DNA from: Promethearchaeum syntrophicum
GTDB lineage: Archaea; Asgardarchaeota; Lokiarchaeia; Sigyniarchaeales; Promethearchaeaceae
Reading direction: 5' to 3'
DNA length: 32,000 nucleotides
Assembly (NCBI RefSeq): GCF_008000775.2
Contig: NZ_CP042905.2
Span: 30,001-62,000, forward strand
In this document: positions 1 through 25,892 of the stretch, in pieces
Position numbering within the stretch: position 1 is the stretch's first letter
How the letters are laid out: the number at the start of each line of letters is the position of its first letter
Notes under the pieces: generated by a model
Told to the model about the DNA's origin: nothing
Database searches by the model: none
Seen by the model: the letters and a program-made list of their open reading frames with translations, nothing else
Program-made: the position numbers and the translations under genes

Positions 1-2638
1 GGATTTGTACAGCTAATGCACACTCGCAGAAATAGAGCGTTGTCATAAGCATAGTAAGTGTTTTTGCTTGAATTACGTCTACTCCACTCCACAACTCAGT
101 TGTAGCGCTTGTAAATAAATAATACGGATTTAATTTTCCTAATTCTGTATTCCGATTCGTAATTGATATTGGGGCATTAATATAAAGGAAATATATAACC
201 AACATGGCTAGTGCTAACAACGCACCATAAGAAATCAGTAAAAACATATATTTTTTTGATATTATTTCCTCGGAATTTCGAGGTTTTTCTTTCATTACAT
301 TTTTTGATATCGTATCAAAGGTTAAAATTAACCCAGGAATAGTATGTAATGTTAATGACAAAAACACCCATTGATACGAAAATTCTTCACTTAGAAAATA
401 GGGAAGTTTCTTTATCACAACTAAATAAAATTGGACAATTCCTTCAAATAGATTTGTGCAAATGAAGAAAAATACTAAGGATCGAATGTTCGCAAAAATT
501 CCTCTCCCTTGGTGAACCCCTTTTACAATAGAAGAGAAGGAATCGTCTGAAATAATCATATCTGAAGCTTCTTTCGCAACATCGGTTCCAGATATCCCCA
601 TTGCAATTCCTGCATCAGCCATGTTTAAAGCCAACGCATCATTTACACCATCTCCAGTCATAGCAACAATTTTATTAGCGTCTTTATATCTTTCAACAAT
701 AATTTGCTTATGTTTCGGGCTGACTCGTGCAAAAACTTTGATATTGAAAAATTCTTCAGAACTTTCCAATTTTTCAATCTTATCACCTTCAATTGCAATT
801 TCTTTTCCATTTTCTTTTGTTAAAATTGATATTTGTGATGCAATTGCTTTCGCTGTCATTAATGAATCTCCGGTGATCATAATAACATCAATTCCGGCTT
901 TATGACAATTTTCTATAGATTCTTTTACTCCTTCTCTGGGCGGGTCCATAATTGCAACAAAACCAATATATATAAGATCTTTTTCAATAATATCTCGTAA
1001 TTCTTCATCATCTACATCCTTAGGGAGTTCATCCATTACATTATAAGCCAAACTAAGTATTCTATAACCTTGCCGCGCATATTCATTAGCAGTATTCATT
1101 ACTACAAGTTTCATCTCATCAATGAAATCGAATGATTTATTTTCATCCCCCAAGAATTTAGAACTTGACATTATTAAGATTTCACTTGCACCTTTAGTGA
1201 ATACGTAATATTTACCATCTTCAGAGTTCTTAAAAACTTTTGACATGCGTTTTAATAATGAACTAAATGGATATTCTTTGATTTGTTCAAACTGCTCTAC
1301 ATCTTTTTTCTTCATTATCTTTTTATAAAAAGATACTAAAGCTCCTTCAGTCGGTGAACCTAATACTTTCCAATCGATAAAGCATTTTTTACCAACCTCT
1401 ATTTCATGTTTGATGAGGGATGCATTGTTATTTAGAAAACCAGCAGTAAGCAGTAATTTCAAATGTGGAAAATTATCAATATCTTCGACTTTTTGAGGTT
1501 CATTTATTTTATCTTTTAAGGTTATATCTCCTTTTGGTACATATCCAGACCCTGATACTGAAAAACGTGATCCTCGTACCCATATATGTTGAACACTCAT
1601 CTGTCCTTTAGTTAAAGTGCCAGTTTTATCAGAGCAAACAACCGATACTCGTCCTAATGAATCAACTGAGGTAAGATTTCGGACAATTATACCAGTCTCA
1701 GCCATTACTAGGACACCAGTTAACATTACAATAGTAGTAAGTAAAGGGATATTAATTGGCATAATATCCATAGCTGAATATAAACCGGGGATTATTGCAA
1801 TTTCACCTGTTGTGATATAAAGAATAATAACTACTGCAATCCATGCTGCCATAACCCCAATACCAAACCATTTTCCAATATTATTGAGTTTTTTACGAAT
1901 CGGAATTTCTGTTGAATTTGAATCTTGTAGTCCTTGAGAAATTTTACCAATTTCAGTATTTAGCCCAGTTTGAACTACTATAGCTAAGGCATTTCCCATG
2001 ACAATATATGTTCCATAGAATAGCATGTTTTCTTGGCTTTGAAGAGGAAGATTTTCACTTTTCAGTGCTTTTATATAACTTTTTTTAACTGGTTCACTTT
2101 CACCGGTAAGAGAAGCTTCATTTACTTCGAGATTTGTGGCTTCAATGATTCTTGCATCAGCAGGTATTTTATCCCCAGTATTAAGAAGAAGTAAATCACC
2201 AACTACAATATTTTTTGTCAGTAATTGCTCACGTTGCCCATTTCGTATTACATTTGTAGTAGGGGCAGCTAGATTTTTTAAAGCTTTTAATTTTTTTGTA
2301 GCCCGAGCTTGTTGAAAAATAGCAACAAATGAGTTTAGAAGTACTATTGCCATGGTAATATAAATAAGAAGCATATCACTCTCCCCAGTTATTAAACCTG
2401 CAACGAGAAGTATAATTGCAGCAATAAAATAAATAATAATTAACCAATTAAATAATGGAGCTAAGTAAATTTTCCATAAATTTTCAGTACCGGGAGGGAT
2501 TTCATTAAATCCTTGTGAATTAAGGAGTGTTAATGCTTTTCCTTCATCCAATCCTTTCCTTCCAGTGGAAAATTTCTTAAAAATCTCTTCTATTTCAAGT
2601 GCATAATTTTCTTCAGCTAATTTTTTAGCTTCTTCCAT
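1..2638 (-). CDS. Cation-transporting P-type ATPase (P2-like); C-terminal end runs off the left window edge
   Basis: Missing from the ORF track because it has no in-window stop. Manual minus-strand translation from the ATG at 2638..2636 stays open to position 1 (879 codons). The N-terminus reads 'MEEAKKLAEENYALEIEEIFKKFSTGRKGLDEGKA'. Recognised motifs: actuator 'TGES', phosphorylation site 'CSDKTGTLT' (about 1611-1637), 'MITGD', and hinge 'TGDGVNDALAL'. Confidence 0.93.
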   Translation of the reverse strand, partial: MEEAKKLAEENYALEIEEIFKKFSTGRKGLDEGKALTLLNSQGFNEIPPGTENLWKIYLAPLFNWLIIIYFIAAIILLVAGLITGESDMLLIYITMAIVLLNSFVAIFQQARATKKLKALKNLAAPTTNVIRNGQREQLLTKNIVVGDLLLLNTGDKIPADARIIEATNLEVNEASLTGESEPVKKSYIKALKSENLPLQSQENMLFYGTYIVMGNALAIVVQTGLNTEIGKISQGLQDSNSTEIPIRKKLNNIGKWFGIGVMAAWIAVVIILYITTGEIAIIPGLYSAMDIMPINIPLLTTIVMLTGVLVMAETGIIVRNLTSVDSLGRVSVVCSDKTGTLTKGQMSVQHIWVRGSRFSVSGSGYVPKGDITLKDKINEPQKVEDIDNFPHLKLLLTAGFLNNNASLIKHEIEVGKKCFIDWKVLGSPTEGALVSFYKKIMKKKDVEQFEQIKEYPFSSLLKRMSKVFKNSEDGKYYVFTKGASEILIMSSSKFLGDENKSFDFIDEMKLVVMNTANEYARQGYRILSLAYNVMDELPKDVDDEELRDIIEKDLIYIGFVAIMDPPREGVKESIENCHKAGIDVIMITGDSLMTAKAIASQISILTKENGKEIAIEGDKIEKLESSEEFFNIKVFARVSPKHKQIIVERYKDANKIVAMTGDGVNDALALNMADAGIAMGISGTDVAKEASDMIISDDSFSSIVKGVHQGRGIFANIRSLVFFFICTNLFEGIVQFYLVVIKKLPYFLSEEFSYQWVFLSLTLHTIPGLILTFDTISKNVMKEKPRNSEEIISKKYMFLLISYGALLALAMLVIYFLYINAPISITNRNTELGKLNPYYLFTSATTELWSGVDVIQAKTLTMLMTTLYFCECALAVQI

Positions 2639-2709
2639 AGATTATTCTTTATCATGGATTATAAAAAATTTGTTAAACCTCATAAGGATAAAATTAAATA
2701 AAAAAATAA

Positions 2710-3492
2710 TTACATTTTCCTCTTTATTTCTTGAGCTATAAATGTAGCAACATCATCAGCATATTTTCCTGAACCAAAACCAGCATCATAACCTAATTCT
2801 TTTGCTAAATCATTAGTAATTCTTGGACCACCCACAATTAATAGAATTTTATCTCGAATTCCTTCAGCTTCTAACATTTCAACCAGTTCTGTTAAATTAT
2901 GAATATGTACTTGTTTTTGAGTGACTGTTTGAGAAACTAATAGTGCATCAGCTTTTAATTCCTTAGCTTTTGCTATAAAATCCTCATTTAACACTTGAGC
3001 ACCCAAATTATATGCCTCAATCATTTCATAACGTTCTAACCCATAATGGCCCATATATCCTTTAGGATTCATTATAGCGTCTATTCCAACAGTATGAGCA
3101 TCAGTCCCAGTTGTTGCTCCCAGAACAATTATCTTTCTTTTAATATTTTTTTTAATGAACTCATCGGTTTCTTTTATGCTCATAACTTTTCCTTCAATAA
3201 CTGCAACATTGATACTATTATAGTCTATTTCTAATGTAGATCTTCCATATACTACGAAAAATGTGAAGTTTTGATCTAAAGAAGCATGATATACAACCGA
3301 AGGCTCGGAAAATCCCATTTTTTCAACATATTGTCGCGCTACTTCAACAGCTTTATCACCATCTTGAATGGGTAATGTAAAACTTAATTGAATTTGGCCA
3401 TCGTTCATAGTGTCGCCATATGGCTTGATTTTTGATAAATCAAGGGTTTTATCAAAATTTTTTTTCCTTGAAGAATATAATCCCCCGCCCAT
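2710..3492 (-). CDS. kamE: Beta-lysine (D-lysine) 5,6-aminomutase beta subunit, B12-binding
   Basis: 260 aa. Carries the cobalamin DxHxxG motif 'GTDAHTVGIDA' (about 3084-3107) in a Rossmann-like C-terminal domain. A strong SD 'GGAGGAG' lies upstream. The start sits 1 nt after the kamD stop. Confidence 0.9.
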   Translation of the reverse strand: MGGGLYSSRKKNFDKTLDLSKIKPYGDTMNDGQIQLSFTLPIQDGDKAVEVARQYVEKMGFSEPSVVYHASLDQNFTFFVVYGRSTLEIDYNSINVAVIEGKVMSIKETDEFIKKNIKRKIIVLGATTGTDAHTVGIDAIMNPKGYMGHYGLERYEMIEAYNLGAQVLNEDFIAKAKELKADALLVSQTVTQKQVHIHNLTELVEMLEAEGIRDKILLIVGGPRITNDLAKELGYDAGFGSGKYADDVATFIAQEIKRKM

Positions 3493-3493
3493 T

Positions 3494-5077
3494 TTAATTC
3501 TCCTCCATACCTAATTCTTTTTTCATCAAGTCTATGAAGGGATTATAATAATTTCTGTCTTTTGGAACCACACCATCTAAACCTTTACCACCATCATGAT
3601 TTCTTTTAATACCAGCAAAAATTCCTTCAGAAAGAGCTTGGAACAAGCCCTTTTTTTCAATTTCTTGTAATAATTCAGTTGCTTCTGCCAATACATCTTT
3701 CGCCCTCGTTTCTATTATACCATCAGGCTGAAAAGTTATTTCATCTCCCAAGTTTTCTAGATTATTGAATATATATTTTGCATTTTCAATTGATAATGCT
3801 CTATCATGCATAAAAGGAGTATGAATTGCCTCAGTAAGCATCCCCAACAAGCAAATCTTTTGATTGGTCATAATTGTAACAATATTGAAAAGGGCATCTT
3901 GAATATGTCCTTTGAAAATATTTCCTGTTATAAACTTAGTCGGTGGCATATATTTTAGTGGAGCATTAGGAAAGATCTCCCTTGCCATTTGTGCTTGAGC
4001 TATCTCATAAAGAAAGCCATTTTTAATAGATGGATTCATTTCAAAAGCATGACCTAATCCCATTTGTTCTTCCTTAAGCCCTGCAAGTAGTGCAAACTGT
4101 TCATTGATAAATTGTGAGGCAAGAACAGTATGTGCTTCTTCAAAAGCATCGGAAGTTGTTAAATAATTATCCTCTCCTGTGTTAATTGTAATTCCTGCAA
4201 ACGCGTTAATCATTCGTGAAAAATATTGGTCTATCAAAGTTCTTTTCATGTTAATATCACGAAAAAGAATACCGTATAATGCATCATTTAACAAAAAATC
4301 TAATCCCTCAAATGCAGCAATAATGGAAATTTCGGGCATACACAACCCGGATGCATAATTTACTAATCGAATATATCTCCCCAATTCTTCTCCGACATCA
4401 TCCAGAGCTTTTCTCATAATTCGAAAATTCTCCTGAGTAGCATAAGTCCCTCCGAAACCTTCTGTTGTAGCCCCATATGGAATATAATCAAGAAGACTTT
4501 GACCAGTAGTGCGAATAACAGCTATAACATCCGCCCCTTGTTTAGCTGCGGCCACCGCTTGGGTTACATCTTCATATATATTTCCTGTTGCTACAATCAC
4601 ATAAAGTAATGGTCCCTCTTTATCCCCGTATTTAGAAAGGAAATCTTCTCTGGTTTTCTTAGTGACTTTTATTTTCTCCAAACTTTTCTTCGAGACTGAA
4701 TCAATTTTTAATTTAATTTCAAAAAGATCATGGATTGGTAATTTTGTTAATTCTAATTTTTTATCCGCAATTTGTTCAGCAATTTCTTGTGGAGAAAGAG
4801 ATGTGTGGATCATAGCATTTCCGATAAAAAATGCAGCACCAAGACCTAATCCAGAACCTTGTTGAATGTTATTTACTACAATATTAGCTAGAGGAACTCC
4901 GAAATCATTAACTCCATCAATTCCAAGGATCCTGCAAACCGTTCTTTCAACAGAAACAGTGGTATAGCTATCGATAAATTTTTGCATTTTATATGCAATT
5001 TTTGAAGCACTTTTTCTTGCTTCTTTAATAACTGAATTATCTAAATTCAATTTAGACTTAAACTGGTTCTTTTTCAT
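3494..5077 (-). CDS. kamD: Beta-lysine (D-lysine) 5,6-aminomutase alpha subunit
   Basis: About 527 aa, the size and position expected of a TIM-barrel large subunit directly upstream of kamE. The track ORF begins at a TTG (5086). The first ATG, at 5077, is preferred. Confidence 0.88.
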   Translation of the reverse strand: MKKNQFKSKLNLDNSVIKEARKSASKIAYKMQKFIDSYTTVSVERTVCRILGIDGVNDFGVPLANIVVNNIQQGSGLGLGAAFFIGNAMIHTSLSPQEIAEQIADKKLELTKLPIHDLFEIKLKIDSVSKKSLEKIKVTKKTREDFLSKYGDKEGPLLYVIVATGNIYEDVTQAVAAAKQGADVIAVIRTTGQSLLDYIPYGATTEGFGGTYATQENFRIMRKALDDVGEELGRYIRLVNYASGLCMPEISIIAAFEGLDFLLNDALYGILFRDINMKRTLIDQYFSRMINAFAGITINTGEDNYLTTSDAFEEAHTVLASQFINEQFALLAGLKEEQMGLGHAFEMNPSIKNGFLYEIAQAQMAREIFPNAPLKYMPPTKFITGNIFKGHIQDALFNIVTIMTNQKICLLGMLTEAIHTPFMHDRALSIENAKYIFNNLENLGDEITFQPDGIIETRAKDVLAEATELLQEIEKKGLFQALSEGIFAGIKRNHDGGKGLDGVVPKDRNYYNPFIDLMKKELGMEEN

Positions 5078-5086
5078 ATTTCTCAA

Positions 5087-6547
5087 CTAATGATAATATT
5101 TTTTAGCATGATTTAAAACATCTTTATTTAATCCAAGTAAATTAGCAATATTAAGTGCATCTTTTGGAACTTTGTTATTATAAGGGACTTGTTCTAATCG
5201 ATAATCTATAAAATCTTGAATTACTTCAACAGAATTTTTTTGGGAAGTGAAAATTTTAGATTTTAATTTTTCAAAATTAACATTTTTCAAGCCAACAACT
5301 TGATAATGAGTAGTATTCTTGGATGGGATTCCATCATAGTGAGTAGCCATGACGGTTATCACTTTTAATTTTTTTAAATAATCAGAAATAGCTTTTACCA
5401 AAATTTTACCTTCTTTTGGATTTGTACCTCGTGCAAATTCATCCAAAAAAATAAATCCCTCATTTTTTTTAATTGATTTAAAAATTTCATCAATTTTTAA
5501 GATTTCTGCGCCAAATGAACTCAGTCCTTTCGATACATCTTGTAAATCGTCCGAAATGCCATGAATGAATTGAACAATTGGAATTCGGGCTTTTTTAGCA
5601 AACACATAAAACCCTTGTTGGGCGAGTAATACATTTAAAGCAATTGTGTTTAGTGAAACCGTTTTTCCTCCCATATTAGCTCCTGTAATAATCGTTACTC
5701 CTGATTTTAGAAGAACGCTAATGGGAGTAAAAGACTTGTTATTTCTCAATAATATGTCTTGGATAAAAGGATTATTCATATTTTCTAAATTAATTTCTAA
5801 AGATTTGATGATTTCAGGTTTAGTTCCATGATATTTTATAGCTAAATTTGCTTTTGCAAGAAGAAAATCAAAATATCCAATTGAGATAACATTATCTTCA
5901 AGAATAAAAATATTTTTTCTTAATTTCTCAGATAATTCCTTTCTAACACGGAATTCCTCTGCCTTTTCTTCAATAACAACGGAATCTCGTTCCTTTTTTA
6001 GTAATTCTTTAACTATTTCATCTACTTCTTTTGCATAATTTTCTTCAATTATCCTTTTCTTTTCCCGAATATAAGCAAGCTCTTTTGAATAAGATTCACA
6101 AATATGAAAGGTGGACATTCTTTGATTTTTAGGATCCAAGAAGTCTAACAGAGGTTTAGGTGATCTAAGATAGATTTTATCAACTTGAAAATCAATTTTC
6201 TTATACAACTCAATTAATTCTTCAGTTATAAGACAAAAATTCTTTATTTCAAACAATTCCACTTCATCGAGAATTTTTTGGTTCTGGATTTGTATTATGG
6301 TTCTACTAATATCTTTATATCTATCTAAACAAAATTCTATATCATGAATCAAATTACTTTGATGTTTAATTAGCTCTATTAATTTTTCCAAATCATTTAA
6401 TTCTTTAATTAATAAATCGCTGTTTTCAATTTTATAGGATTTAATCTTGTTTTTTTCATTCATTCCATAAAATGTGTGAATTTGCATTGCATTCATGAGA
6501 AAATTATAACCAATTGCTTCTCTTTGAGTATCATCCAAATAATCCAT
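5087..6547 (-). CDS. MutS-domain-V family ATPase without a mismatch-binding domain; putative lysine 5,6-aminomutase reactivase ATPase (KamC-like)
   Basis: Walker A 'GANMGGKTVSLNT' (about 5660-5690). Walker B/signature 'FIFLDEFARGTNPKEG'. 'VMATHYDG', cf. the MutS 'ATHY' motif. The N-terminal ~260 aa are helical and Lys/Glu-rich, with no MutS domain I. The track start is a TTG at 6580. The ATG at 6547 is preceded by 'AGAGGGAA'. Confidence 0.8.
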   Translation of the reverse strand: MDYLDDTQREAIGYNFLMNAMQIHTFYGMNEKNKIKSYKIENSDLLIKELNDLEKLIELIKHQSNLIHDIEFCLDRYKDISRTIIQIQNQKILDEVELFEIKNFCLITEELIELYKKIDFQVDKIYLRSPKPLLDFLDPKNQRMSTFHICESYSKELAYIREKKRIIEENYAKEVDEIVKELLKKERDSVVIEEKAEEFRVRKELSEKLRKNIFILEDNVISIGYFDFLLAKANLAIKYHGTKPEIIKSLEINLENMNNPFIQDILLRNNKSFTPISVLLKSGVTIITGANMGGKTVSLNTIALNVLLAQQGFYVFAKKARIPIVQFIHGISDDLQDVSKGLSSFGAEILKIDEIFKSIKKNEGFIFLDEFARGTNPKEGKILVKAISDYLKKLKVITVMATHYDGIPSKNTTHYQVVGLKNVNFEKLKSKIFTSQKNSVEVIQDFIDYRLEQVPYNNKVPKDALNIANLLGLNKDVLNHAKKYYH

Positions 6548-6566
6548 TATTGTTTCCCTCTTTTTT

Positions 6567-7604
6567 TTAACTATCTTCAAGTAAATTGAAAACCGATATT
6601 TGAATATTCTGTTTTAGTAACTTTAGAAATTTGTCTTTACTAAAACCATCTCCTATCGGTGATTTTGGGTTTATAGTTACCCCGACAATTTTAATTGGAT
6701 ATATAACCTTTAAAATTCCTCCACTTTTTTGAAATCTACTTAAAACTTCTCTTGAAAGAAAAAGTTTAGTAGAATCTTCCACCAATAAAACCATTCTGTT
6801 ATAATTTTTCACATAATTCATAAATTCTTCAATAAAATTATCGCTAACAATACCCTTAACAACTATAATTTGATAATCATTAAGTAACTCCTTCTTAACA
6901 TTCTTTAGAGCTTCTCTAGCATTAAAATTGTTAATGATTTTCGTTTCATGATTAGGAGAAATAAACCCAATTGTTCCATTTTGAATAATTTTCTTTGATA
7001 AATTAATGATCTGTGAATTTTTTTCACCTTCTAGAGAAAGTAAATTAACTAAATGAGACGTATGGTGCACAACTCTATCAATATCAGGTGAGAAAGCTGC
7101 TCCAGTTGCTAGAATCGTTGCATCTGTCACGATTGGTGATGCATAAGATTTTCTATTTACGGCACCATCTATAATTACGAAATCGCAATTAAAACTGAAT
7201 AAAATATTTTTTATTTCTAATAGTTCTGAGTTTTTAGAAGGTCCAGCCAACTCAACGAAACCATCAGATAATGCCCTAATGATTAAAATTTCCCCTAGTG
7301 GTGTTTTAAAATCAGTTGCAACAAGAATTTCCTTAGTTATATCAGTATTAGAAATACATTGTTTTGCTGTTGCAATTATGGTCCCTTTTTCTACGTATAT
7401 TCGTGGTTTTGGAGTGGAAAAAATTGCGTCTTTGCTTTCCCCATCACGACCTATTGAAGTTAAGCCGAGATTATATTTGTTTTTTGCAATATTTATCATA
7501 TAATTAAGAGTTGTGGTTTTCCCTACATTTTTTGCTGTTCCAATTATTGAAATTGATTTAAACTTGTTAAAAATATCCAAAAAAAAGGCTAATTTTTCTA
7601 GCAT
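6567..7604 (-). CDS. P-loop NTPase (SIMIBI/CbiA-DTBS-like Walker A) of unknown function; candidate second reactivase/chaperone subunit (KamB-like)
   Basis: N-terminal Walker A 'SIIGTAKNVGKTTTLNYM' (about 7516-7542). Embedded between kamA and the MutS-like gene. The start is ambiguous: GTG at 7616, 5 nt after the kamA stop, or ATG at 7604. Confidence 0.6.
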   Translation of the reverse strand: MLEKLAFFLDIFNKFKSISIIGTAKNVGKTTTLNYMINIAKNKYNLGLTSIGRDGESKDAIFSTPKPRIYVEKGTIIATAKQCISNTDITKEILVATDFKTPLGEILIIRALSDGFVELAGPSKNSELLEIKNILFSFNCDFVIIDGAVNRKSYASPIVTDATILATGAAFSPDIDRVVHHTSHLVNLLSLEGEKNSQIINLSKKIIQNGTIGFISPNHETKIINNFNAREALKNVKKELLNDYQIIVVKGIVSDNFIEEFMNYVKNYNRMVLLVEDSTKLFLSREVLSRFQKSGGILKVIYPIKIVGVTINPKSPIGDGFSKDKFLKLLKQNIQISVFNLLEDS

Positions 7605-7621
7605 ACAACTTACCACACAAA

Positions 7622-8872
7622 TTAATTACAACTTGACTTTTTTCTATTATTTCTTTCTAATCCTTCGGGTTCTAAAGAAATTCTCTGTCCATTTAACAAA
7701 CCTGCTACTCCAATTAAGTTAGGATCTTCATCGCTTACATTAGGGCACCCAGGAGTATAGAATTTAGGCTCTTCGTAAGTAGTAATAACACCTTCATAAT
7801 TGCGTAAAACTACACGATTATTCCCCTGTGAGATTACATAATTAGGCATTACCGGAATTTTCCCTCCTCCTCCAGGTGCATCTACAACGAAAGTTGGAAC
7901 ACAAAAACCAGAAGTATGACCTCTTAAGCCTTCAATAATATCGATACCTTGGGCAATAGTTGTTCTAAAATGAGATAATCCAATAGATAAATCGCATTGA
8001 TAGATATAATAAGGTCTAACCCTCATTTTCACTAATTCGTGAACTAATTTCTTCATCACAGGGATACAATCATTAATCCCTCTTAAAAGGACAGATTGAT
8101 TTCCCAAAGGAATACCAGCGTCTGCAAGCATTGCACATGCTTTCTTTGAATCATCAGTAATTTCATTAGCATGATTAAAATGAGTATTCAACCAGATTGG
8201 ATGATATTTTTTTAACATAGAACATAATTCAGGGGTAATTCTTTGAGGCATGACACAAGGCGTACGAGTTCCAATTCGTATTATTTCTACATGGGGAATT
8301 TTACGTAAATTTGAAATAATATATTCTAGTCGTTTATCTGAAAGCAATAATGGATCTCCACCCGATAACAAAACATCCCTTACAGATGGAGTATTTGCAA
8401 TATATTCAATTGCATTATCAACTTGTTCTTTGGATGGTGCTTTATCCACGTGACCTGCAAAACGACGACGAGTGCAATGGCGACAGTACATGGAACAGAC
8501 ATGAGTAATTAAAAATAGTACCCGATCTGGATATCTATGGGTAATTCCAGGAACGGGGGAATCTGTATCTTCGTGTAAAGGATCTTGAAGATCTGCTGAT
8601 ACCTCATGAGTTTCTTTTATTGAAGGTACGGATTGTCTCTTAATAGGGTCAATAGGATCGTTGGGATCAATTAATGTGAGATAATATGGAGTTATCGCCA
8701 TTCGGAATACTTTGGTTGTATCAATTACGTTCAATTCTTCTTCTCTAGTTATAGGAAGATATTTTTTTAGCTGTTCGACATCACCAATTCGATTTTTGAC
8801 TTGCCAATGCCAATCATTCCAATCTTCATCGGATACATCTGGATATAATTCTTTTCTTCTATTTACACGCAT
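7622..8872 (-). CDS. kamA: L-lysine 2,3-aminomutase (radical SAM, PLP)
   Basis: 416 aa. Radical SAM cluster motif '[12 protein letters not shown]' (about 8462-8497). The N-terminus '[22 protein letters not shown]' and the 'GGGGK' region are typical of KamA. Full length includes the C-terminal domain, unlike the shorter EpmB. Confidence 0.93.
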
Positions 8873-8881
8873 AATTATTAC

Positions 8882-9919
8882 CTAAACATACTTTTCTTCG
8901 AAAAGTTTCATAAGTTTTGGGCTTTCTCTTAATACATCTAAAGTCATTTTGGCATGATTTTTAGTATATCCATTACCAATTATCATTGAAACATCTTTAC
9001 CTACACCTTCAGCCCCTAAAGCTGCTTTGGTAAAGCTTGTAGCCATGGAAAAGAAATATACAATACCATCATCACGCACTGGAAGAATACTTGACATTTC
9101 AGTATCAGATATATTCACACAATTAATTGAAATATCCACTTCTTTCCCCTCATTAGCTTCGAGTGTTTTTTCATAGACTTCAACTGGATTTCTTGCATCA
9201 GCTACAACAATGGAACCACAAAAACCAATATTTCGAAGATATTCTGCACGTACTTCATTACGGGCTAAACCTAATACTTTACCGTTAGTTCCCACGATTT
9301 TTTTAGCCACATATGAACACATTACTCCAGATTTCCCAGTTGCGCCTAATATTAACACGTTATCCCCCGGTTTAACAAGTTTCATTGTTTGAGCAGGGGC
9401 ACCTGCAACGTCTAAAGCTGCTAAAGCAACTGCATCAGTCATATCTTCAGGAATTTTTGCATAGATCCCACTTTCAAAGAGAATTGCTTGAGCTTTTACT
9501 ATTACTTTATCAATATTCAATTTAATATCGAATATTTCATGAATTTTCAAAGGAGTTAAAGATAGTGAGACTAACGTAGCAATTCTATCTCCAACAGCTA
9601 GATCGATTTTTTCTTTTAATGCGTCACCTATTTTTGCAATTTTACCCATTAGCATTCCACCAGATCCAGTTACCGGATTTTGCATTTTACCCCTTTCTTC
9701 GACAATTTGCATAATCTTTTTTTTAATTTTTTCTGGATCTCCGTGAGCTTCGCTTTTCAGCTGAGTAAAACTCGCAGAATCAATATTAAGTGCATCTACG
9801 TCAATTAGAATTTCATTATCGAAAATTTCCATATCATTGGAAATTTGTTGTGCTGCTTGCGGCATTGATCCTAATGGATTAATTACGCGATGAGTTCCGA
9901 AACGATTACCTTTTTTCAT
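8882..9919 (-). CDS. kdd: 3,5-diaminohexanoate dehydrogenase
   Basis: About 345 aa. Rossmann segment 'VLILGATGKSG'. N-terminus 'MKKGNRFGTHRVINPLG'. First gene of the operon with kamA/kamDE. The track start is a TTG at 9931. The ATG at 9919 has 'GGTG' 7 nt upstream. Confidence 0.85.
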   Translation of the reverse strand: MKKGNRFGTHRVINPLGSMPQAAQQISNDMEIFDNEILIDVDALNIDSASFTQLKSEAHGDPEKIKKKIMQIVEERGKMQNPVTGSGGMLMGKIAKIGDALKEKIDLAVGDRIATLVSLSLTPLKIHEIFDIKLNIDKVIVKAQAILFESGIYAKIPEDMTDAVALAALDVAGAPAQTMKLVKPGDNVLILGATGKSGVMCSYVAKKIVGTNGKVLGLARNEVRAEYLRNIGFCGSIVVADARNPVEVYEKTLEANEGKEVDISINCVNISDTEMSSILPVRDDGIVYFFSMATSFTKAALGAEGVGKDVSMIIGNGYTKNHAKMTLDVLRESPKLMKLFEEKYV

Positions 9920-9972
9920 TAAAAACACCAATTTTAAATTAATTAATTATCCGAACTAATAATGTTTTTCGT

Positions 9973-10662: not shown

Positions 10663-13600
10663 TTAACAATTTCTTTGCCGTTTAATTAATAAAATCATTA
10701 AACCTAAAGTAAATGTTGAAAATAATCCCAGGAATATTATCGAAAAACCCGGAATTCCTGAGCTTGGAAAATCATCAGGATCATTAGGATCTGTACCTGC
10801 TACAATCTCTACTCCATCTGTAAACCCATCATCATCTGTGTCTGCATTATTAGGATCTGTGCTGTGTGTGTTAATTTCTACTTCATCAGATAAATCATCA
10901 TCATCACTATCAGTATCGTTCGGATCTGTGCTGTATGTGTTAATTTCTTCTCCATCGGATAATTCATCATCATCGCTATCTGAATCATTCGGATCTGTGC
11001 TGTATGTGTTAATCTCTTCTCCATCGGATAATCCATCATCATCGCTATCTGCATCGATCGGATCTGTGTTGTTTGTAATTAGTTCTTCTTGATCTGATAA
11101 TCCATCATCATCCGTGTCTACATCATTCGGATCTGTTCCATATGTGATTACCTCTTCTTGATCTGATAACCCATCATCATCACTATCTATATCATTAGGA
11201 TCTGTGTTGTATGTGTTAATTTCTTCTCCGTCTAATAACCCATCTTCATCCGTATCTTCAAGGTGAGGTTCTGTACAATAGGTGATTATCTCTTCATAAT
11301 CTGATAACCCATCATCATCACTATCTATATCATTAGGATCTGTGTAATAAACACTTTCTTCAAGATTTGTTAATCCATCTCCATCATCATCAGTATCTGC
11401 ATCGGAAGGATTGTTCGGATCTAATCCATAATAAACTTCATATCCATCAGACATTCCATCATCATCACTATCTTCATCGTTTGGATCTGTATTATACGTT
11501 AAAATCTCTTCTCCATCAAATAACCCGTCATCATCACTATCTAATTCATTAGGATCTGTGAAATATGTGTTAATTTCTTCTCCATCGGATAATCCATCAT
11601 CATCGGTATCCGTATCATTCGGATCTGTGAAATGTGTGTTAATTTCTTCTCCATCGGATAATCCATCATCATCGGTATCTGTATCATTTGGATTTGTAAA
11701 ATGTGTGTTAATTTCTTCTCCATCGGATAATCCATCATCATCGGTATCTGTATCATTCGGATCTGTAAAATATGTGTTAATTTCTTCTTGATCGCCTAAC
11801 CCATCATCATCACTATCTGCATCATTAGGATCTGTGCCATACGTGTTAATTTCATCTCCATCGGAAAGCCAATCATCATCACTGTCTGAGTCTGTTGGAT
11901 CTGTTTGATAAGAATATTCTTCAAGATTTGTTAAACCATCGCTATCATCATCAGTACCTGCATCAGAAGCACTATTCGGATCTAAACTGTATGTTGTTTC
12001 CCATCCATCAGGCATCCCATCATCATCACAATCTGCATCGTTTGGATCTGTGTTATATGTATTAATTTCTTCTCCATCGGAAAGCCCATCATCATCCGAA
12101 TCTGTATCATTAGGATCTGTGTTATACGTATTAATTTCTTCTCCATCGGACAGCCCATCATCATCCGAATCTGTATCATTAGGATCTGTGCTATACGTGG
12201 TAACTTCTTCTCCATCAGATAATCCATCATCATCCGAATCTGTATCATTAGGATCTGTGTTATACGTGGTAATTTCTTCTCCATCAGATAATCCATCATC
12301 ATCCGAATCTGTATCATTAGGATCTGTTTGATTGATGTATTCTTCGAGATTAGTTAATCCATCTCCATCCAAATCTCCACCTGCATCGGAAATATTGTTC
12401 GGATTTAAACCATTCATAATTTCCCATCCATCAGACATTCCGTCATCATCCGTATCTGTATCATTTGGACCAGTGTTATAAGTGATGATTTCTTCTCCAT
12501 CGGATAATCCATCTCCATCTGAATCTGCATCATTAGGATCTGTGCTATAAGTGAAAATTTCTTCTCCATCAGATAATCCATCATCATCCGAATCAACATC
12601 ATTAGGATCTGTGCTATATGTGTTAATTTCTTCTCCATCGGATAATCCATCATCATCCGTATCACTATCAAAGGGATGTGTGTTGTATATATATTCATTG
12701 AGATTTGTTAAGTCGTCCCCATCCTCATCATAACTTGCAGTAGCATTATTACTAAAGAAGTAAAATATTTCCCATCCATCAGGCATCCCATCATCATCCG
12801 AATCTGCATCATTCGGATCTGTGCCCCACATGAATAATTCTTCTTGATCTGATAATTCATCATCATCCGAATCTGGATCGTTAGGATCTGTACTATATGT
12901 ATTAATCTCTTGTCCATCGGTTAACCCATCATCATCAGAATCTGTATCATTCGGATCTGTGTTATTCGTGATAATTTCTTCTCCATCGGATAACCCATCA
13001 TCATCACTGTCTGGGTCTGTCGGATCTGTATGAAGGTTATATTCTTCGAGATTTGTCAATCCGTCGGTATCAGAATCTATGCCTGCATCAGAAGCACTAT
13101 TTGGATCTAAACCGTATACTGTTTCCCATCCATCAAGCATCCCATCATCATCTGTGTCTGTATCATTAGGATCTGTGCTGTGGGTGTTAATCTCTTCTCC
13201 ATCGGTTAACCCATCATCATCAGTGTCTGCATCATTAGGATCTGTGAAATAGGTATTAATTTCTTGTCCATCTGATAATCCATCATCATCTGTATCTGTA
13301 TTGTTAGGATCTGTTCCATACATGATTATTTCTTCTTGATCTGATAATCCATCTCCATCGCTATCTGCATCGTTTGGATCTGTTCCATACGTGATAACTT
13401 CTTCTTGATCTGATAATCCATCATCATCCGAATCTGCATCATTAGGATCTGTGCTATACGTGTTAATTTCTAATCCATCAGATAATCCATCATCATCCGA
13501 ATCTGAATCTGTGGGATCTGTGCTGTATAAGAGTATTTCTAATCCATCTAATAGTCCATCATCATCAGTATCTGTATCGTTCGGATCTGTGTTATGTGTG

Positions 13601-16600
13601 TTAATTTCATCTCCATCTGATAAAGCGTCATCATCACTATCGTTATCGTTTGGATCTGTTTGATAATTAAACTCTTCAAGATTTGTTAATCCATCGCTAT
13701 CAGAATCTATACCGGCATCAGAAGCACTATTTGGATTAAAACCATACATAATTTCCCATCCATCAGACATTCCATCACCATCACTATCTGAGTCGTTAGG
13801 ATCTGTACTATACGTGATAACTTCCTCTTGGTCGGTTAATCCATCATCATCACAATCTGAGTCGTTCGGATCTGTGCTATACGTGATAACTTCCTCTTGG
13901 TCTGATAATCCATCATCATCCGAATCTGTGTCGTTTGGATCTGTGCTAAATGTGTTAACTTCTTGTCCATCAGTTAATCCATCATCATCCGAATCTGTGT
14001 CGTTTGGATCTGTGCTATATGTATTAATTTCTTGTCCATCAGATAATCCATCATCATCCGAATCTGTGTCGTTCGGATCTGTGCTATATGTGTTAATTTC
14101 TTGTCCATCAGATAATCCATCATCATCACTATCTGGGTCTGTTGGATCTGTACTGTATGTGATTACTTCTTCTTGGTCTGATAATCCGTCATCATCCGAA
14201 TCTGTATCATTGGGATCTGTTCCGTACGTATTAATTTCTTCTCCGTCTAATAACCCATCTTCATCCGTATCTTCAAGATGAGGTTCTGTACCATATGTTA
14301 TTATTTCTTCATAATCGGATAACCCATCATCATCGCTATCTACATCATAAGGATCTGTGTAATGAACACTTTCTTCGAGATTTGTTAATCCATCTCCATC
14401 CGAATCTACATCAGCATCAGAAGGATTGTTAGGATCTAACCCATAATAAATTTCATATCCGTCAGACATCCCATCATCATCACTATCTGAGTCTAATGGA
14501 TCTGTGCTATGGGTTAAAATTTCTTCCCCATCAAACAAACCATCTTCGTCCGTATCTAAAAGGTTCGGATCTGTACCATAGGTTAAAATTTCTTCTCCAT
14601 CGGATAACCCATCATCGTCCGTATCTACATCGCTAGGATCGGTGCTGTGAGTGCTAATTTCTTCTCCGTCGGATAACCCATCATCATCGGTATCGGCATC
14701 GTTCGGATCTGTAGCATGCGTGTTAATTTCTTCTCCATCTGATAATCCATCATCATCGCTATCTGCATCATTCGGATCTGTGCTATATATGGAAACTTCG
14801 TCCCAGTCATCTAATCCATCATCATCGCTATCTATATCGTTCGGATCTGTTCCATATGTGTGTATTTCTTCTCCATCGGTTAATCCATCATCATCCGTAT
14901 CACTATCATAGGGATCGGTGTTGTATGTATATTCTTCAAGATTTGTTAATCCATCGACCTCTTGATCCAAACCCGCATCAGAAGGATTATTTGGATTAAA
15001 ACTGTATAAAATTTCCCATCCATCAGGCATACCATCGTCATCACTATCTGTATCGTTTGGATCTGTGCTGTGTGTGTTAACTTCGTCTCCATCGGATAAT
15101 CCATCATCATCACTATCTATATCGTTCGGATCTGTGCTATACGTGTTGATTTCTTCTCCGTCGGATAACCCATCATCATCACTATCTGAGTCTGACGGAT
15201 CTGTGCTGTATAAGATTATTTCTAATCCATCCAATAACCCATCATCATCACTATCTGAGTCTGTCGGATCTGTGTTATGTGTATTAACTTCGTCACCATC
15301 GGATAATCCATCATCATCACTATCTGAGTCTGTGGGATCAGTTTGATAGTTAAATTCTTCGAGATTTGTCAATCCATCTCCATCCAAATCTCCAACCGCA
15401 TCGGAAGGATTGTTCGGATCTAAACCATACGTAATTTCCCATCCATCTAACATTCCATCATCATCTGTATCTGCATCGTTAGGATCTGTGTCATATGTGA
15501 TTAATTCTTCTTGATCATACAATCCATCATCATCTGTATCTGCATCATTAGGATTTGTTTGATAAATAAATTCTTCAAGATTTGTTAATCCATCACTATC
15601 AGAATCTAAACTTGCATCAGAAGGATTATTTGGATTCAAACCGAATCCTATTTCCCATCCGTCATGTATCCCATCATCATCCGTATCGCTTTTATTTTCA
15701 TTTAACCTAAGTGAAATCTCAAGAATATCTGGCATACTGTCACCATCACTATCCATCGCATTGGCATGATGGAGTGCTGATCCCCCCCAGCATGGCCAAG
15801 GTCCGGGTATCGCCCACGGATCACCATTTCCAATTAAGCAGTATATTTTACCATCATCGGAGCCAAACAGGACTTCCATATTCCCATCCCCGTCCACATC
15901 ACCGAGCGCGGGACTGGAACTAATCGTATTTCCGGTTGTAAAATTCCATTCTTCTCCTCCAGTTGTCCCGTCAATACAGTACATTTTGTGATCAAGGGAA
16001 CCAAATAAGATTTCTATATCCCCATCCCCGTCCACATCACCGATTGTGGGGCTACTAGAATAAACACGATCTCCAGCTGTAAACGACCATTCTTGTAATC
16101 CTGTTGTCCCGTCAAGGCAGTACATTTTGTGATCATAGGAACCAAATAAGATTTCTATATCCCCATCCCCGTCCACATCACCGAGTGCAGGGCCAGAATA
16201 AACAGTACTTCCAGCTAAAAAATTCCATTCTTCTACTCCAGTGGTTCCGTCCAGACAGTAAATATTGCGATAGCAAATAAATACGATTTCTATATCCCCG
16301 TCTCTGTCCACATCACCGAGGGCGATGGTTGAAGGGCTATTTCCGAGTGAAAAAGACCATTCTGACAATCCCGTGGTTCCGTCTACACAAAAAATATAGT
16401 GTCTAGAGCAACTTACAAGAACTTCCATGTCCCCGTCCCCGTCCACATCACCGATGGCAGGAATGGAATAAAAACTAGCTAAATAAGAATCAACCGTCCA
16501 TTTTTCTTCTCCCGTGGTTCCGTCCAGACAGTAAATTTTGTCATGACCTCCCAGAACTTCCATATTCCCGTCTCCATCTACATCACCAAGTGCAAGACCG

Positions 16601-17055
16601 GAATTAACAACATCTCCGGTTGTAAAATTCCATTCTTCTCCTCCAGTTGTACCATCAAGACAGTAGATTTTGCGATCATTGGAACCAATCAGAACTTCCA
16701 AGTTTCCGTCACCGTCCACATCACCGATTGTGGGGCTAGAATAAACAACATCTCCGGTTGTAAACGACCATTTTTCTTCTCCCGTGTCCCCGTCCAGACA
16801 ATAGACTTTGTGATCTTGGGAACCTACTACAACTTCCATATTTCCATCCCCATCTGTATCACCTATTGCAGGATTAGAACTAACACTGTCTCCGGTTGTA
16901 AATGTCCATGCTAGAGACCCTGTTGTTCCCGTAAAGCCTGTGGAATATTCCGCATCTTCGGAAATCATTAACGGAAAAATAAGAAATGTCAGTAAAATCG
17001 CTATACCTATTATGATATTTTTCCTCATTACTCGATTGACCGATATTCCGGCCAT
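10663..17055 (-). CDS. Giant secreted/surface-anchored Ca-binding repeat protein: signal peptide + 8-bladed FG-GAP/PQQ-like beta-propeller + ~70 TSP type-3-like repeats + PGF-CTERM anchor
   Basis: The ORF is open over 10663-17187, but the track start is a TTG. The first ATG is at 17055 ('MAGISVNRVMRKNIIIGIAILLTFLIFPLMI', a signal-like sequence). There are eight blades of the form 'W.F.TGD.V.SSP.IGDVDGDG..EV..GS.D.K.YCLDG.TG'. A long array of 'D.D.DDDGLSDGEEINTYSTDPN' units follows. The C-terminus is 'SSGIPGFSIIFLGLFSTFTLGLMILLIKRQRNC'. Confidence 0.9.
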   Translation of the reverse strand: MAGISVNRVMRKNIIIGIAILLTFLIFPLMISEDAEYSTGFTGTTGSLAWTFTTGDSVSSNPAIGDTDGDGNMEVVVGSQDHKVYCLDGDTGEEKWSFTTGDVVYSSPTIGDVDGDGNLEVLIGSNDRKIYCLDGTTGGEEWNFTTGDVVNSGLALGDVDGDGNMEVLGGHDKIYCLDGTTGEEKWTVDSYLASFYSIPAIGDVDGDGDMEVLVSCSRHYIFCVDGTTGLSEWSFSLGNSPSTIALGDVDRDGDIEIVFICYRNIYCLDGTTGVEEWNFLAGSTVYSGPALGDVDGDGDIEILFGSYDHKMYCLDGTTGLQEWSFTAGDRVYSSSPTIGDVDGDGDIEILFGSLDHKMYCIDGTTGGEEWNFTTGNTISSSPALGDVDGDGNMEVLFGSDDGKIYCLIGNGDPWAIPGPWPCWGGSALHHANAMDSDGDSMPDILEISLRLNENKSDTDDDGIHDGWEIGFGLNPNNPSDASLDSDSDGLTNLEEFIYQTNPNDADTDDDGLYDQEELITYDTDPNDADTDDDGMLDGWEITYGLDPNNPSDAVGDLDGDGLTNLEEFNYQTDPTDSDSDDDGLSDGDEVNTHNTDPTDSDSDDDGLLDGLEIILYSTDPSDSDSDDDGLSDGEEINTYSTDPNDIDSDDDGLSDGDEVNTHSTDPNDTDSDDDGMPDGWEILYSFNPNNPSDAGLDQEVDGLTNLEEYTYNTDPYDSDTDDDGLTDGEEIHTYGTDPNDIDSDDDGLDDWDEVSIYSTDPNDADSDDDGLSDGEEINTHATDPNDADTDDDGLSDGEEISTHSTDPSDVDTDDDGLSDGEEILTYGTDPNLLDTDEDGLFDGEEILTHSTDPLDSDSDDDGMSDGYEIYYGLDPNNPSDADVDSDGDGLTNLEESVHYTDPYDVDSDDDGLSDYEEIITYGTEPHLEDTDEDGLLDGEEINTYGTDPNDTDSDDDGLSDQEEVITYSTDPTDPDSDDDGLSDGQEINTYSTDPNDTDSDDDGLSDGQEINTYSTDPNDTDSDDDGLTDGQEVNTFSTDPNDTDSDDDGLSDQEEVITYSTDPNDSDCDDDGLTDQEEVITYSTDPNDSDSDGDGMSDGWEIMYGFNPNSASDAGIDSDSDGLTNLEEFNYQTDPNDNDSDDDALSDGDEINTHNTDPNDTDTDDDGLLDGLEILLYSTDPTDSDSDDDGLSDGLEINTYSTDPNDADSDDDGLSDQEEVITYGTDPNDADSDGDGLSDQEEIIMYGTDPNNTDTDDDGLSDGQEINTYFTDPNDADTDDDGLTDGEEINTHSTDPNDTDTDDDGMLDGWETVYGLDPNSASDAGIDSDTDGLTNLEEYNLHTDPTDPDSDDDGLSDGEEIITNNTDPNDTDSDDDGLTDGQEINTYSTDPNDPDSDDDELSDQEELFMWGTDPNDADSDDDGMPDGWEIFYFFSNNATASYDEDGDDLTNLNEYIYNTHPFDSDTDDDGLSDGEEINTYSTDPNDVDSDDDGLSDGEEIFTYSTDPNDADSDGDGLSDGEEIITYNTGPNDTDTDDDGMSDGWEIMNGLNPNNISDAGGDLDGDGLTNLEEYINQTDPNDTDSDDDGLSDGEEITTYNTDPNDTDSDDDGLSDGEEVTTYSTDPNDTDSDDDGLSDGEEINTYNTDPNDTDSDDDGLSDGEEINTYNTDPNDADCDDDGMPDGWETTYSLDPNSASDAGTDDDSDGLTNLEEYSYQTDPTDSDSDDDWLSDGDEINTYGTDPNDADSDDDGLGDQEEINTYFTDPNDTDTDDDGLSDGEEINTHFTNPNDTDTDDDGLSDGEEINTHFTDPNDTDTDDDGLSDGEEINTYFTDPNELDSDDDGLFDGEEILTYNTDPNDEDSDDDGMSDGYEVYYGLDPNNPSDADTDDDGDGLTNLEESVYYTDPNDIDSDDDGLSDYEEIITYCTEPHLEDTDEDGLLDGEEINTYNTDPNDIDSDDDGLSDQEEVITYGTDPNDVDTDDDGLSDQEELITNNTDPIDADSDDDGLSDGEEINTYSTDPNDSDSDDDELSDGEEINTYSTDPNDTDSDDDDLSDEVEINTHSTDPNNADTDDDGFTDGVEIVAGTDPNDPDDFPSSGIPGFSIIFLGLFSTFTLGLMILLIKRQRNC
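10790..15765 (-). repeat. Tandem coding repeats, 69-bp (23-codon) period, ~70 units (thrombospondin type-3-like DxDxDGxxDxxE calcium-binding units)
   Basis: The periodicity is visible in both DNA and protein. It is punctuated by 10 double-length modules 'DDDGM.DGWEI.YGL(D/N)PN(N/S).SDA..D.D.DGLTNLEE'. Confidence 0.9.
15790..16930 (-). repeat. Eight ~140-bp coding repeats (propeller blades)
   Basis: The plus-strand string 'ccccgtccacatcaccga' (encoding GDVDGDG) recurs about every 140 bp. Confidence 0.8.
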
Positions 17056-17386
17056 CTTATTTCGCCCTAAAGAAATTGAACTTAACTTGTTATGTTTAAA
17101 TTTTCTGTATTTTGTCAATTTTGATTCCTCATTTATGTTTGAAATTATTAATTTGTTAACCCAATTATCAAATTGTCTATAAATCAAATTATAAATCTAT
17201 CTTTAGATTAACTTGTATAAAAAATTTATTATAGAGGCAGGTGAGAAAAATTATGATATTTTCTTTTTTATCGGAATCTATTATCCAATTTTGGTTTTAT
17301 CTCCCAATTTTTGTTCAAGTGTTTTTGCATCACTTAAAATAATAATTAGATTCCATGCATAAATGAATAGAAAAAAAGGAATTAAC

Positions 17387-22857: not shown

Positions 22858-22997
22858 TAAAAAAAACCCTCGATCTTTTTTTACATTTCTAGAATATTAT
22901 ATCTTACTTATTCCGTTACCCCTTTCGTTGTTTAAAATTCCTTCTAATATAAGCACCTTTTTTTTCTCTCTTTTCTTCTTCCATAGTGTGAATTAAA

Positions 22998-25751: not shown

Positions 25752-25802
25752 GATTTTCGACTCAAATAATAATATTGTCTGTAAATAAAAAATTTTACTG
25801 AA
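25744..25802 (-). repeat. Direct repeat copy 1: kal start codon + 5' region/promoter (TATA-like 'TTTTTTATTTA')
   Basis: 56/59 nt identical to 27316-27374. Confidence 0.85.
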
Positions 25803-25892
25803 CAAGATAATGAATATAAATATACATAATTTAAAATAGCAGAAATGGTAAAAAAAAATGAAAAATTGACCCAATTATTAAAAAAAAAGAAA

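Follow-up and report, generated by a model that had tools for sequence, protein, structure and literature searches.

KamB and KamC, a probable accessory gene pair of lysine 5,6-aminomutase in the lysine-fermentation operon of the Asgard archaeon Promethearchaeum syntrophicum

In a stretch of 32,000 nucleotides (nt) of the Promethearchaeum syntrophicum genome (contig NZ_CP042905.2, positions 30,001 to 62,000 of the forward strand; hereafter the window), two genes, kamB and kamC, lie between kamA and the genes kamD and kamE, which encode lysine 5,6-aminomutase (KamDE), an enzyme dependent on adenosylcobalamin (AdoCbl) and pyridoxal 5'-phosphate (PLP). Our analysis gives us high confidence that KamB and KamC are functionally dedicated to KamDE, and we consider it fairly likely that their activity is an ATP-dependent reactivation of, or cofactor exchange on, this enzyme. 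A preliminary description of the locus had presented the reactivase idea as if it were novel; it is already known, being the current curated public annotation of both families. What is new is that kamB was found in some Asgard operons with no kamC in its vicinity. The pair belongs to six closely packed genes, kdd-kamA-kamB-kamC-kamD-kamE, which occupy the region 2710..9931 on the minus strand:

kdd, 8882..9931, minus strand: L-erythro-3,5-diaminohexanoate dehydrogenase, first gene of the operon (NF052381 Lys_ferment_KDD, 267 bits, cut-off 200)
kamA, 7622..8872, minus strand: lysine 2,3-aminomutase, a radical S-adenosylmethionine (SAM)/PLP enzyme (TIGR03820, 629 bits, cut-off 525; Pfam Radical_SAM and LAM_C)
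kamB, 6567..7604, minus strand: P-loop protein of 345 residues, 38.4 kDa, isoelectric point (pI) 9.2 (NF052386)
kamC, 5087..6547, minus strand: MutS2-core-like ATP-binding cassette (ABC) ATPase of 486 residues, 56.4 kDa (NF052383)
kamD, 3494..5077 or 3494..5086, minus strand: start at ATG 5077 or TTG 5086 (NF052384, 907 bits; Pfam Lys-AminoMut_A, 886 bits)
kamE, 2710..3492, minus strand (NF052385, 390 bits; Pfam OAM_dimer and B12-binding)

With kdd upstream of kamA, the scores of these flanking genes confirm the position between kamA and kamDE that had been assigned to the pair. Because KamE retains the cobalamin motif DxHxxG (DAHTVG, residues 131-136) together with K144, motifs that are invariant in 12 homologues, the lysine 5,6-aminomutase encoded in the window appears to be intact. 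The two tandem open reading frames (ORFs) reported earlier at 5087-7616 are indeed present, but these coordinates are those of the longest ORFs, 7616..6567 (349 residues) and 6580..5087 (497 residues), both on the minus strand, and not of the likely starts. Since they match the deposited proteins DSAG12_00555 (kamB) and DSAG12_00554 (kamC) of P. syntrophicum MK-D1 with 100% identity, ATG 7604 and ATG 6547 are probably the true starts, the latter being preceded by GAGGGA. On this assignment the 14-nt overlap of kamB and kamC would be an artefact of the longest ORFs, and the actual spacer would be 19 nt.

Both proteins match their NCBIfam equivalogs far beyond chance. KamB scores 379.3 bits (cut-off 210, E = 1e-113) against NF052386, 'lysine 5,6-aminomutase reactivase subunit KamB', with residues 22-344 aligned to positions 1-325 of the 326 in the profile, and KamC scores 562.4 bits (cut-off 300, E = 1e-168) against NF052383, 'lysine 5,6-aminomutase reactivase ATPase KamC', with residues 23-496 aligned to profile positions 1-508. 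UniRef and many NCBI records give the homologues in Clostridia the same reactivase names, so that the KamB/KamC naming mentioned in the preliminary description is exactly the one in use; other pipelines label KamC homologues 'MutS2' or 'DNA mismatch repair protein'. The reactivase family name states a predicted function, drawn from gene context. The window pair resembles the NCBIfam families in its full-length, above-cut-off matches, its kamA-to-kamDE gene order and its motifs, and differs only in being archaeal (Asgard) and in that DSAG12_00554 and DSAG12_00555 are both labelled 'hypothetical protein' in their own record. A paper of 2011 (PMC3149608) also shows the genes in its drawings of the lysine-fermentation clusters from Fusobacterium, Cloacimonas and a Bacteroidetes contig, where they are marked 'HP' and 'mutS' and receive no comment.

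Gene order gives good support for a tie to KamDE. When one genome per species was scanned with the KamC alignment, relatives of KamC turned up in at least 590 stretches, and the best 80 loci were analysed. These come from Clostridia, Peptostreptococcaceae, Oscillospiraceae, Fusobacteria, Ozemobacteraceae and Asgard archaea, including Lokiarchaeum ossiferum. Directly upstream of kamC and on the same strand, kamB was found in 70 of the 71 loci with enough upstream sequence, mostly with a gap of 13-30 nt (median ~20 nt). Conserved synteny with kamDE in other genomes, on which the preliminary description had staked its proposal, is observed: kamD is present in 63 of the 80 loci and seven more hold other lysine-fermentation genes before the contig ends, with the remaining ten showing no lysine gene in the stretch covered. 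The order kamB-kamC-kamD-kamE, as in the window, occurs in 46 loci, and kamB-kamC-kal-kce-kdd-kamA-kamD-kamE in 17. When metagenomes were scanned in the reverse direction, starting from KamD, both kamB and kamC were present in 36 of 58 testable loci, the others being mostly truncated copies of the second arrangement. One locus (L026) has kamBCDE with neither kamA nor kdd nearby, which points to KamDE rather than KamA as the partner of the pair. Another (L143:7998-10288), probably disrupted, has kamD and, after it, a fragment of an IS630-family transposase, but neither kamE nor any other lysine gene could be detected.

Mean identity to the window proteins is 43% for KamB and 43% for KamC, as compared with 70% for KamD and 65% for KamE. 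Across 52 loci the identities of KamB and KamC co-vary (r = 0.96), and both proteins diverge faster than KamDE. Thus kamB and kamC are a nearly obligatory, co-evolving gene pair in bacteria and Asgard archaea. The window KamB and KamC share 72-85% identity with those of close Promethearchaeum relatives, ~50% with those of Clostridia and 45-48% with those of L. ossiferum, which are therefore no closer than the clostridial ones, and in unbootstrapped neighbour-joining trees the Asgard KamC, KamD and KamE cluster together within bacterial diversity. The identity pattern and this grouping suggest that the entire operon moved from a bacterium to an archaeon long ago.

A different operon type was found in six metagenome loci (L083, L086, L088, L094, L113 and L128) and in two loci of Asgard metagenome-assembled genomes (L161:8693-13459 and L162:8609-13454; Thorarchaeota GCA_048881985.1 and Promethearchaeota GCA_048938225.1), which carry kamA-kamB-kamD-kamE and have no MutS_V gene within 8-10 kb. 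The complete order is kat-kce-methyltransferase-kdd-(2-hydroxyacid dehydrogenase)-kamA-kamB-kamD-kamE, and the KamB encoded there is bona fide, at ~400 bits. In five of the six metagenome loci its P-loop reads GLAKNVSKTT, a Ser replacing the Gly that precedes the Walker Lys in all 106 KamB sequences with an adjacent KamC; this association with the lack of kamC is confounded by descent, all of these loci belonging to a single clade, and a kamC gene elsewhere in the genome is conceivable. The 120 best matches to Lokiarchaeum KamC include none from Thorarchaeota or other Asgard archaea. No candidate for a substitute ATPase emerged from the neighbouring genes, which encode an aminotransferase, a SagB-like protein, a methyltransferase, a 2-hydroxyacid dehydrogenase and transporters. 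Since kamB occurs without kamC nearby while kamC essentially always pairs with kamB, KamB looks like the constant partner of KamDE, with KamC nearly always accompanied by KamB and KamB not always by KamC. The earlier notion of a two-component system is not universal, as these Asgard operons of the other type illustrate.

The sequence features of KamC that bear on its activity are the following:

Walker A, GANMGGKT, residues 289-296, 5660..5683, minus strand
GLSSFGAE, residues 341-348, 5504..5527, minus strand: at the position of the MutS/ABC signature motif, which from general knowledge of MutS proteins we take it to be
Walker B, LDEFARGT with D369-E370, residues 368-375, 5423..5446, minus strand
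His-switch, ATHY, residues 401-404, 5336..5347, minus strand

An ABC-type ATPase core had been proposed for KamC from GANMGGKT, LDEFARGT and ATHY, all of which were located. In 114 KamC homologues, T288-G-A-N-M-G-G-K295, G341-L-S-x-F-G-x-E348, the Walker B residues D369-E370 with the A-R-G-T-N-P-x-E-G that follows them, and T402-H403 are at least 97% conserved. As far as residues can tell, the motif set looks like that of a working, dimer-forming ABC/MutS ATPase. The only Pfam domain recognised is MutS_V (E = 3e-26, residues 297-444 of the long ORF). No MutS_I, MutS_II or Smr match was obtained in the Pfam scan, which bears out the earlier statement that KamC has neither a mismatch-recognition nor an Smr domain, and there was no KOW match either; ~60 residues separate the His-switch from the C-terminus at residue 486. 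To call it a MutS domain V protein is correct as far as MutS_V is present, but the AlphaFold (AF2) model of KamC (predicted local distance difference test, pLDDT, 88.2; predicted TM-score, pTM, 0.86) covers more than domain V, namely a full MutS2 core. In Foldseek searches the model superposes over its full length on MutS2 cores (E ~1e-20, TMq 0.65-0.76; for 9a5o_B, 7qv3 and 9kce, E 6e-21 to 2e-19 and TMq 0.66-0.76), the matches 9a5o_B, 7qv3_w, 9kce and 7vuf representing Bacillus subtilis MutS2 on collided ribosomes and the MutS2 cores of Thermotoga maritima and Thermus thermophilus. According to the model, KamC would be a MutS2 core composed of N-terminal helical lever arms, a small tip and the ATPase.

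KamC is nevertheless set apart from known MutS2 and MutS1 proteins. The best-scoring hidden Markov model (HMM) other than that of KamC itself is TIGR01069 mutS2, with 176 bits against a cut-off of 400 and a match confined to profile positions 235-452 of 790, and MutS1 models, in addition to the lack of MutS_I and MutS_II, yield 105-118 bits against cut-offs of 480-642. The lever helices and the ABC ATPase core with its motifs are common to KamC and the MutS2 proteins of B. subtilis (MutS2/RqcU), T. maritima and T. thermophilus, whereas KamC lacks KOW and Smr, stays below the TIGR01069 cut-off, is paired with KamB and is tied to lysine fermentation. Assignment to one of the MutS3/4/5 subfamilies (Lin et al. 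2007) was not possible from the text of that paper. With a pI of 4.9-6.8 the arm regions range from acidic to neutral, the ATPase part is basic, and highly conserved residues are found in the tip and arms (L137-D138-P139, F147, R161, K164, E194 and E197-198). Arm charge and conserved tip may fit a specific protein partner better than DNA, which is only suggestive.

In KamB, two features were located:

P-loop, GTAKNVGKTT, residues 22-31, 7512..7541, minus strand
IIDGAVNR, residues 144-151, 7152..7175, minus strand: Walker-B-like strand ending in the near-invariant D146-G-A..R151

KamB carries the motifs of its family, a P-loop of the form G-x2-KN-x-GKTT and, downstream, SIGRDGE and DGA..R; G22, K25, N26, K29, T30 and D146 are at least 97% conserved in 113 homologues. 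No Pfam domain was recognised. In the AF2 model (pLDDT 87.8), a P-loop domain at the N-terminus, which contains a beta-rich insertion, is followed by a C-terminal alpha/beta domain, and positions conserved at 90% or more make up 48% of the P-loop domain, 23% of the insertion and 5% of the variable C-terminal domain. Foldseek matches in the PDB are weak (E 7e-3 to 0.1, TMq 0.2-0.29, ~200 aligned columns) and nearly all belong to the SIMIBI class of nucleoside triphosphatases (NTPases), including CapB/Wzc, MinD, FlhG, Get3, ParA, MeaB, FtsY, NifH-like and CooC-like proteins. A profile search of the PDB sequences gave no match at E <= 10. By inspection, the P-loop spacing G-x5-GK[ST] is that of dethiobiotin synthetase (DTBS) and CobQ/CbiA-type enzymes. 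Attempts to place 30 aligned members in Pfam at E <= 5 returned only sub-threshold and inconsistent families (MJ0548_C, DUF1611_C, AAA_26 and MMR_HSR1), with AAA_26 in two of the 30 at E >= 0.16 and DUF1611_C in six at E >= 0.04, which is noise level. The earlier label 'SIMIBI-like' is reasonable, but the specific kinship with CbiA, DTBS and MeaB suggested with it is not established. Sequence comparison spoke against the idea that KamB mimics KamE as DdrB mimics a dehydratase subunit (hhalign probability 0.3% between the KamB profile and KamE), and hhalign likewise gave no sign of homology between KamB and KamC (probability 0.6%).

AdoCbl enzymes occasionally destroy their cofactor, and dedicated ATP-driven repair factors are required. 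Known factors of this kind, DdrAB/PduGH/GdrAB and EutA, are ATPases of the Hsp70/actin fold (ASKHA). The job proposed for KamB and KamC is like theirs, an ATP-dependent release of damaged cobalamin by proteins whose genes lie beside that of the enzyme (PMC3958899 and general knowledge). They differ in that KamB and KamC are P-loop proteins and that KamB gives no signal of subunit mimicry of KamE. Pfam and NCBIfam scans gave no match to DdrA/PduG or EutA, and no reactivase or EutA chain is among the top 50 Foldseek matches of either protein; for KamC these are MutS/MutS2 chains without exception, and for KamB P-loop NTPases predominate. MeaB/MMAA, a SIMIBI protein of the G3E group, also serves a B12 mutase; KamB is likened to it by the P-loop and the weak fold matches (3tk1 and 2qm7), and differs by having no MeaB/ArgK match in Pfam or NCBIfam, a DTBS-like P-loop and an extra C-terminal alpha/beta domain.

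KamDE is subject to suicide inactivation, which ends with cob(III)alamin (PMC3958899). The classical ATP-dependent activating component mentioned in the preliminary description is the protein E2, known for decades from Stadtman-era biochemistry on D-lysine/beta-lysine 5,6-aminomutase, which reviews of 2014 and 2022 describe as an ATP-dependent sulfhydryl protein of ~80 kDa, its genes being unnamed (PMC3958899, PMC9081730). In this classical work ATP is an allosteric activator that requires E2 (PMC3958899, PMC9081730), and isolated E2 had 'dAdoCbl synthetase activity', label from [8-14C]ATP being transferred to E1 (PMC3958899). KamB and KamC are most probably the gene-level counterpart of E2. 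The ATP/Mg2+-dependent activation and reactivation of E1 (KamDE) by E2 corresponds to the role proposed for the pair, and in mass E2 comes close to two KamB subunits (a dimer, 2 x 38.4 kDa) and does not differ greatly from KamB plus KamC (95 kDa).

By analogy with SIMIBI cofactor chaperones and with the conformational cycles of MutS/MutS2, the following mechanism may be envisaged. KamDE would inactivate itself in turnover and be left with damaged cob(III)alamin. Dimeric KamB would then dock on KamDE, probably at the B12-binding domain of KamE, and in a KamC homodimer with two composite ATP sites the binding and hydrolysis of ATP would swing the lever arms. This motion would bring about a conformational change through which the dead cofactor could leave and fresh AdoCbl could bind. 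KamB is proposed as the enzyme-binding part because it is the constant partner of KamDE and because SIMIBI NTPases commonly serve as dimeric cofactor chaperones; to share out the roles of KamB and KamC in this way is speculative. A more far-reaching proposal, which is possible and which we put forward tentatively, is that KamB is the universal and sufficient partner of KamDE, that KamC, added in most bacterial lineages, has turned a MutS2 core into an ATP motor that acts on protein, and that together they form a structurally new P-loop class of B12 reactivase unrelated to the Hsp70-fold reactivases and to MeaB, which in the Asgard kamA-kamB-kamD-kamE operons would be found in its minimal natural form.

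Expression of the pair was followed in the published proteome of Intestinimonas AF211 (PMC4697335, Supplementary Data 1), in which AF_00974 and AF_00975, directly upstream of kal, were taken as KamB and KamC by gene order and annotation, not by sequence. Both were detected, at ~1/100 and ~1/15 of the abundance of KamD, respectively (PMC4697335). Values for KamC and for the pathway enzymes are:

AF_00975, 'Recombination inhibitory protein MutS2' (KamC): logiBAQ 8.25, -1.0x on lysine
AF_00977, Kce: logiBAQ 8.99, 10.9x on lysine
AF_00979, Kdd: logiBAQ 9.60, 7.1x on lysine
AF_00980, KamA: logiBAQ 9.67, 11.1x on lysine
AF_00981, KamD: logiBAQ 9.42, 6.25x on lysine
AF_00982, KamE: logiBAQ 9.23, 11.3x on lysine

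In the same table, the propanediol dehydratase reactivase stands in a ratio to its enzyme (8.78 vs 9.74) similar to that of KamC to KamD, and sub-stoichiometric abundance is thus common to the Pdu reactivase and the presumed KamB and KamC. Intestinimonas also has a separate MutS2 and a separate MutS (AF_01012 and AF_00172), and the tag 'Recombination inhibitory protein MutS2' on AF_00975 shows a mislabelling of the KamC family.

Several observations weigh against a reactivase dedicated to KamDE. In Intestinimonas lysine does not induce the presumed KamB (+1.5x) or KamC (-1.0x), as opposed to the pathway enzymes, which rise 6-11x. At least one locus (L120:3196-10523) is a complete kal-kce-kdd-kamA-kamD-kamE cluster without linked kamBC, and three kamBC pairs (L045:8995-11452, L059:8967-11476 and L078:8904-11440) stand among unrelated genes throughout full 10-kb flanks, although all three exceed the NCBIfam cut-offs. 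Next to these orphan pairs no B12 enzyme was found, the genes on either side being unrelated ones (HD, PhzF, spore photoproduct lyase, DprA, transketolase, amidohydrolase and aldehyde dehydrogenase). If the cluster has been split in a few genomes, pairs without linkage and operons without a pair are to be expected. The operons with kamB but no kamC, described above, count on the same side. Full-text literature searches found no experimental study of KamB or KamC, and PDB searches gave no solved structure for either family, in line with the preliminary description, which knew of none. Neither protein has a likeness to a known B12 reactivase, the MeaB matches of KamB being very weak (E 0.05-0.09, TM 0.21-0.24). 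No cysteine is at least 97% conserved in KamB or KamC, whereas E2 was described as a sulfhydryl protein. Finally, a review credits OraS with restoring the classical ATP effect on KamDE (PMC3958899), which makes the identity of E2 itself uncertain.

Of the other functions that could be assigned to the pair, an AdoCbl loading or gating chaperone comparable to MeaB, or a KamB that re-adenosylates enzyme-bound cob(I)alamin from ATP, is unlikely in our estimation but has the most in its favour. The weak SIMIBI-like fold matches of KamB include MeaB, CooC-like, MinD and Get3-type chaperones, and its P-loop spacing, by inspection and with the weak AAA_26 and DUF1611_C matches, fits DTBS/CobQ-type enzymes, some of which act on corrinoids. 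No adenosyltransferase gene was found in the window, and KamB occurs without KamC in some operons. The synthetase activity of E2 and its transfer of ATP label to E1 (PMC3958899) could be read in the same way. Against this, Pfam scans revealed no similarity of KamB to CobA/BtuR, PduO or EutT, the MeaB matches are at noise level, and the co-inheritance of a MutS2-type clamp ATPase in nearly all bacterial loci would be left unexplained. A regulatory module without a part in cofactor repair, which would act allosterically on KamDE as an ATP sensor or else control the operon, is distinctly improbable. The requirement of E2 for allosteric activation by ATP (PMC3958899, PMC9081730) and the low constitutive expression of the pair in Intestinimonas would agree with such a role, but catalytic residues are fully conserved in two NTPases, including the Walker B Glu and the His-switch of KamC, which argues for hydrolysis-driven work; moreover, no DNA-binding regulator domain was found in the Pfam scans, and restoration of the ATP effect has been attributed to OraS (PMC3958899).

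It is more improbable still that KamB, with or without KamC, serves the radical-SAM enzyme KamA instead of KamDE, for example in Fe-S cluster supply or activation. Among SIMIBI NTPases there are carriers of Fe-S clusters and electron donors, and kamB directly follows kamA both in the window and in the Asgard kamA-kamB-kamD-kamE operons. KamB has no conserved cysteine, however, and kal-kce-kdd separate kamBC from kamA in 17 genome loci and in many metagenome loci, while kamA is absent beside the kamBCDE genes of L026; KamA-family genes in other roles (ablA, epmB) are not known to have a KamB partner. We give the least credence to KamC as an ordinary nucleic-acid or ribosome MutS2 paralogue, acting in recombination suppression or the rescue of collided ribosomes and standing beside kamDE incidentally. 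Its nearest solved folds are MutS2, including the ribosome-bound B. subtilis protein, TIGR01069 is its best HMM outside the KamC family, homologues are often labelled 'MutS2' or 'DNA mismatch repair protein', and the Intestinimonas protein does not respond to lysine. These likenesses have to be set against a score of less than half the mutS2 cut-off, the lack of Smr, KOW and MutS_I/II, the pairing with KamB in all but one of the loci that allow a judgement, the lysine-fermentation setting of 70 of the 80 loci, the occurrence of separate MutS2 and MutS proteins in the same organism and the acidic to neutral arm regions.

Elsewhere in the window, a second lysine-fermentation unit was identified:

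second lysine-fermentation unit, 24535..25874, minus strand (NF052388, 196 bits; NF052387, 458 bits)

With this unit, the window contains the entire upper lysine-fermentation pathway, in two separate units. A divergent gene pair at 17387..18685 (minus strand) and 18809..20128 (plus strand), with AlaDh_PNT (lysine/saccharopine dehydrogenase-like) and saccharopine dehydrogenase domains, may represent a second lysine-related route nearby. Directly downstream of kamE, and extending beyond the left edge of the window, is a gene for a P-type cation-transporting ATPase (2..2641, minus strand), whose best matches are of the Ca2+ and Na+/K+ types. An ORF of 2174 residues (10663..17187, minus strand) combines N-terminal beta-propeller/PQQ-like repeats with many bacterial TSP3 calcium-binding repeats; its G+C content is 0.38-0.40, as against 0.30-0.33 in the surrounding DNA, and its GC and AT skews are negative. 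The region 21823..24519 (plus strand) encodes an RlmN/Cfr-type radical-SAM RNA methyltransferase (TIGR00048, 377 bits) followed by a two-subunit iron-sulfur L-serine dehydratase, sdaB/sdaA, and these are bacterial-type genes in an archaeal genome.

If the annotation is true, KamB and KamC would constitute a class of B12 reactivase non-homologous to the known ones, and in KamC a MutS2 core would have a protein, and not DNA or ribosomes, as its target. The value of the window is limited: it presents an Asgard archaeon with a complete, apparently bacterial-type lysine-fermentation set that includes both accessory genes, and the new point that emerges from the comparison is that some archaeal operons appear to manage with KamB alone.

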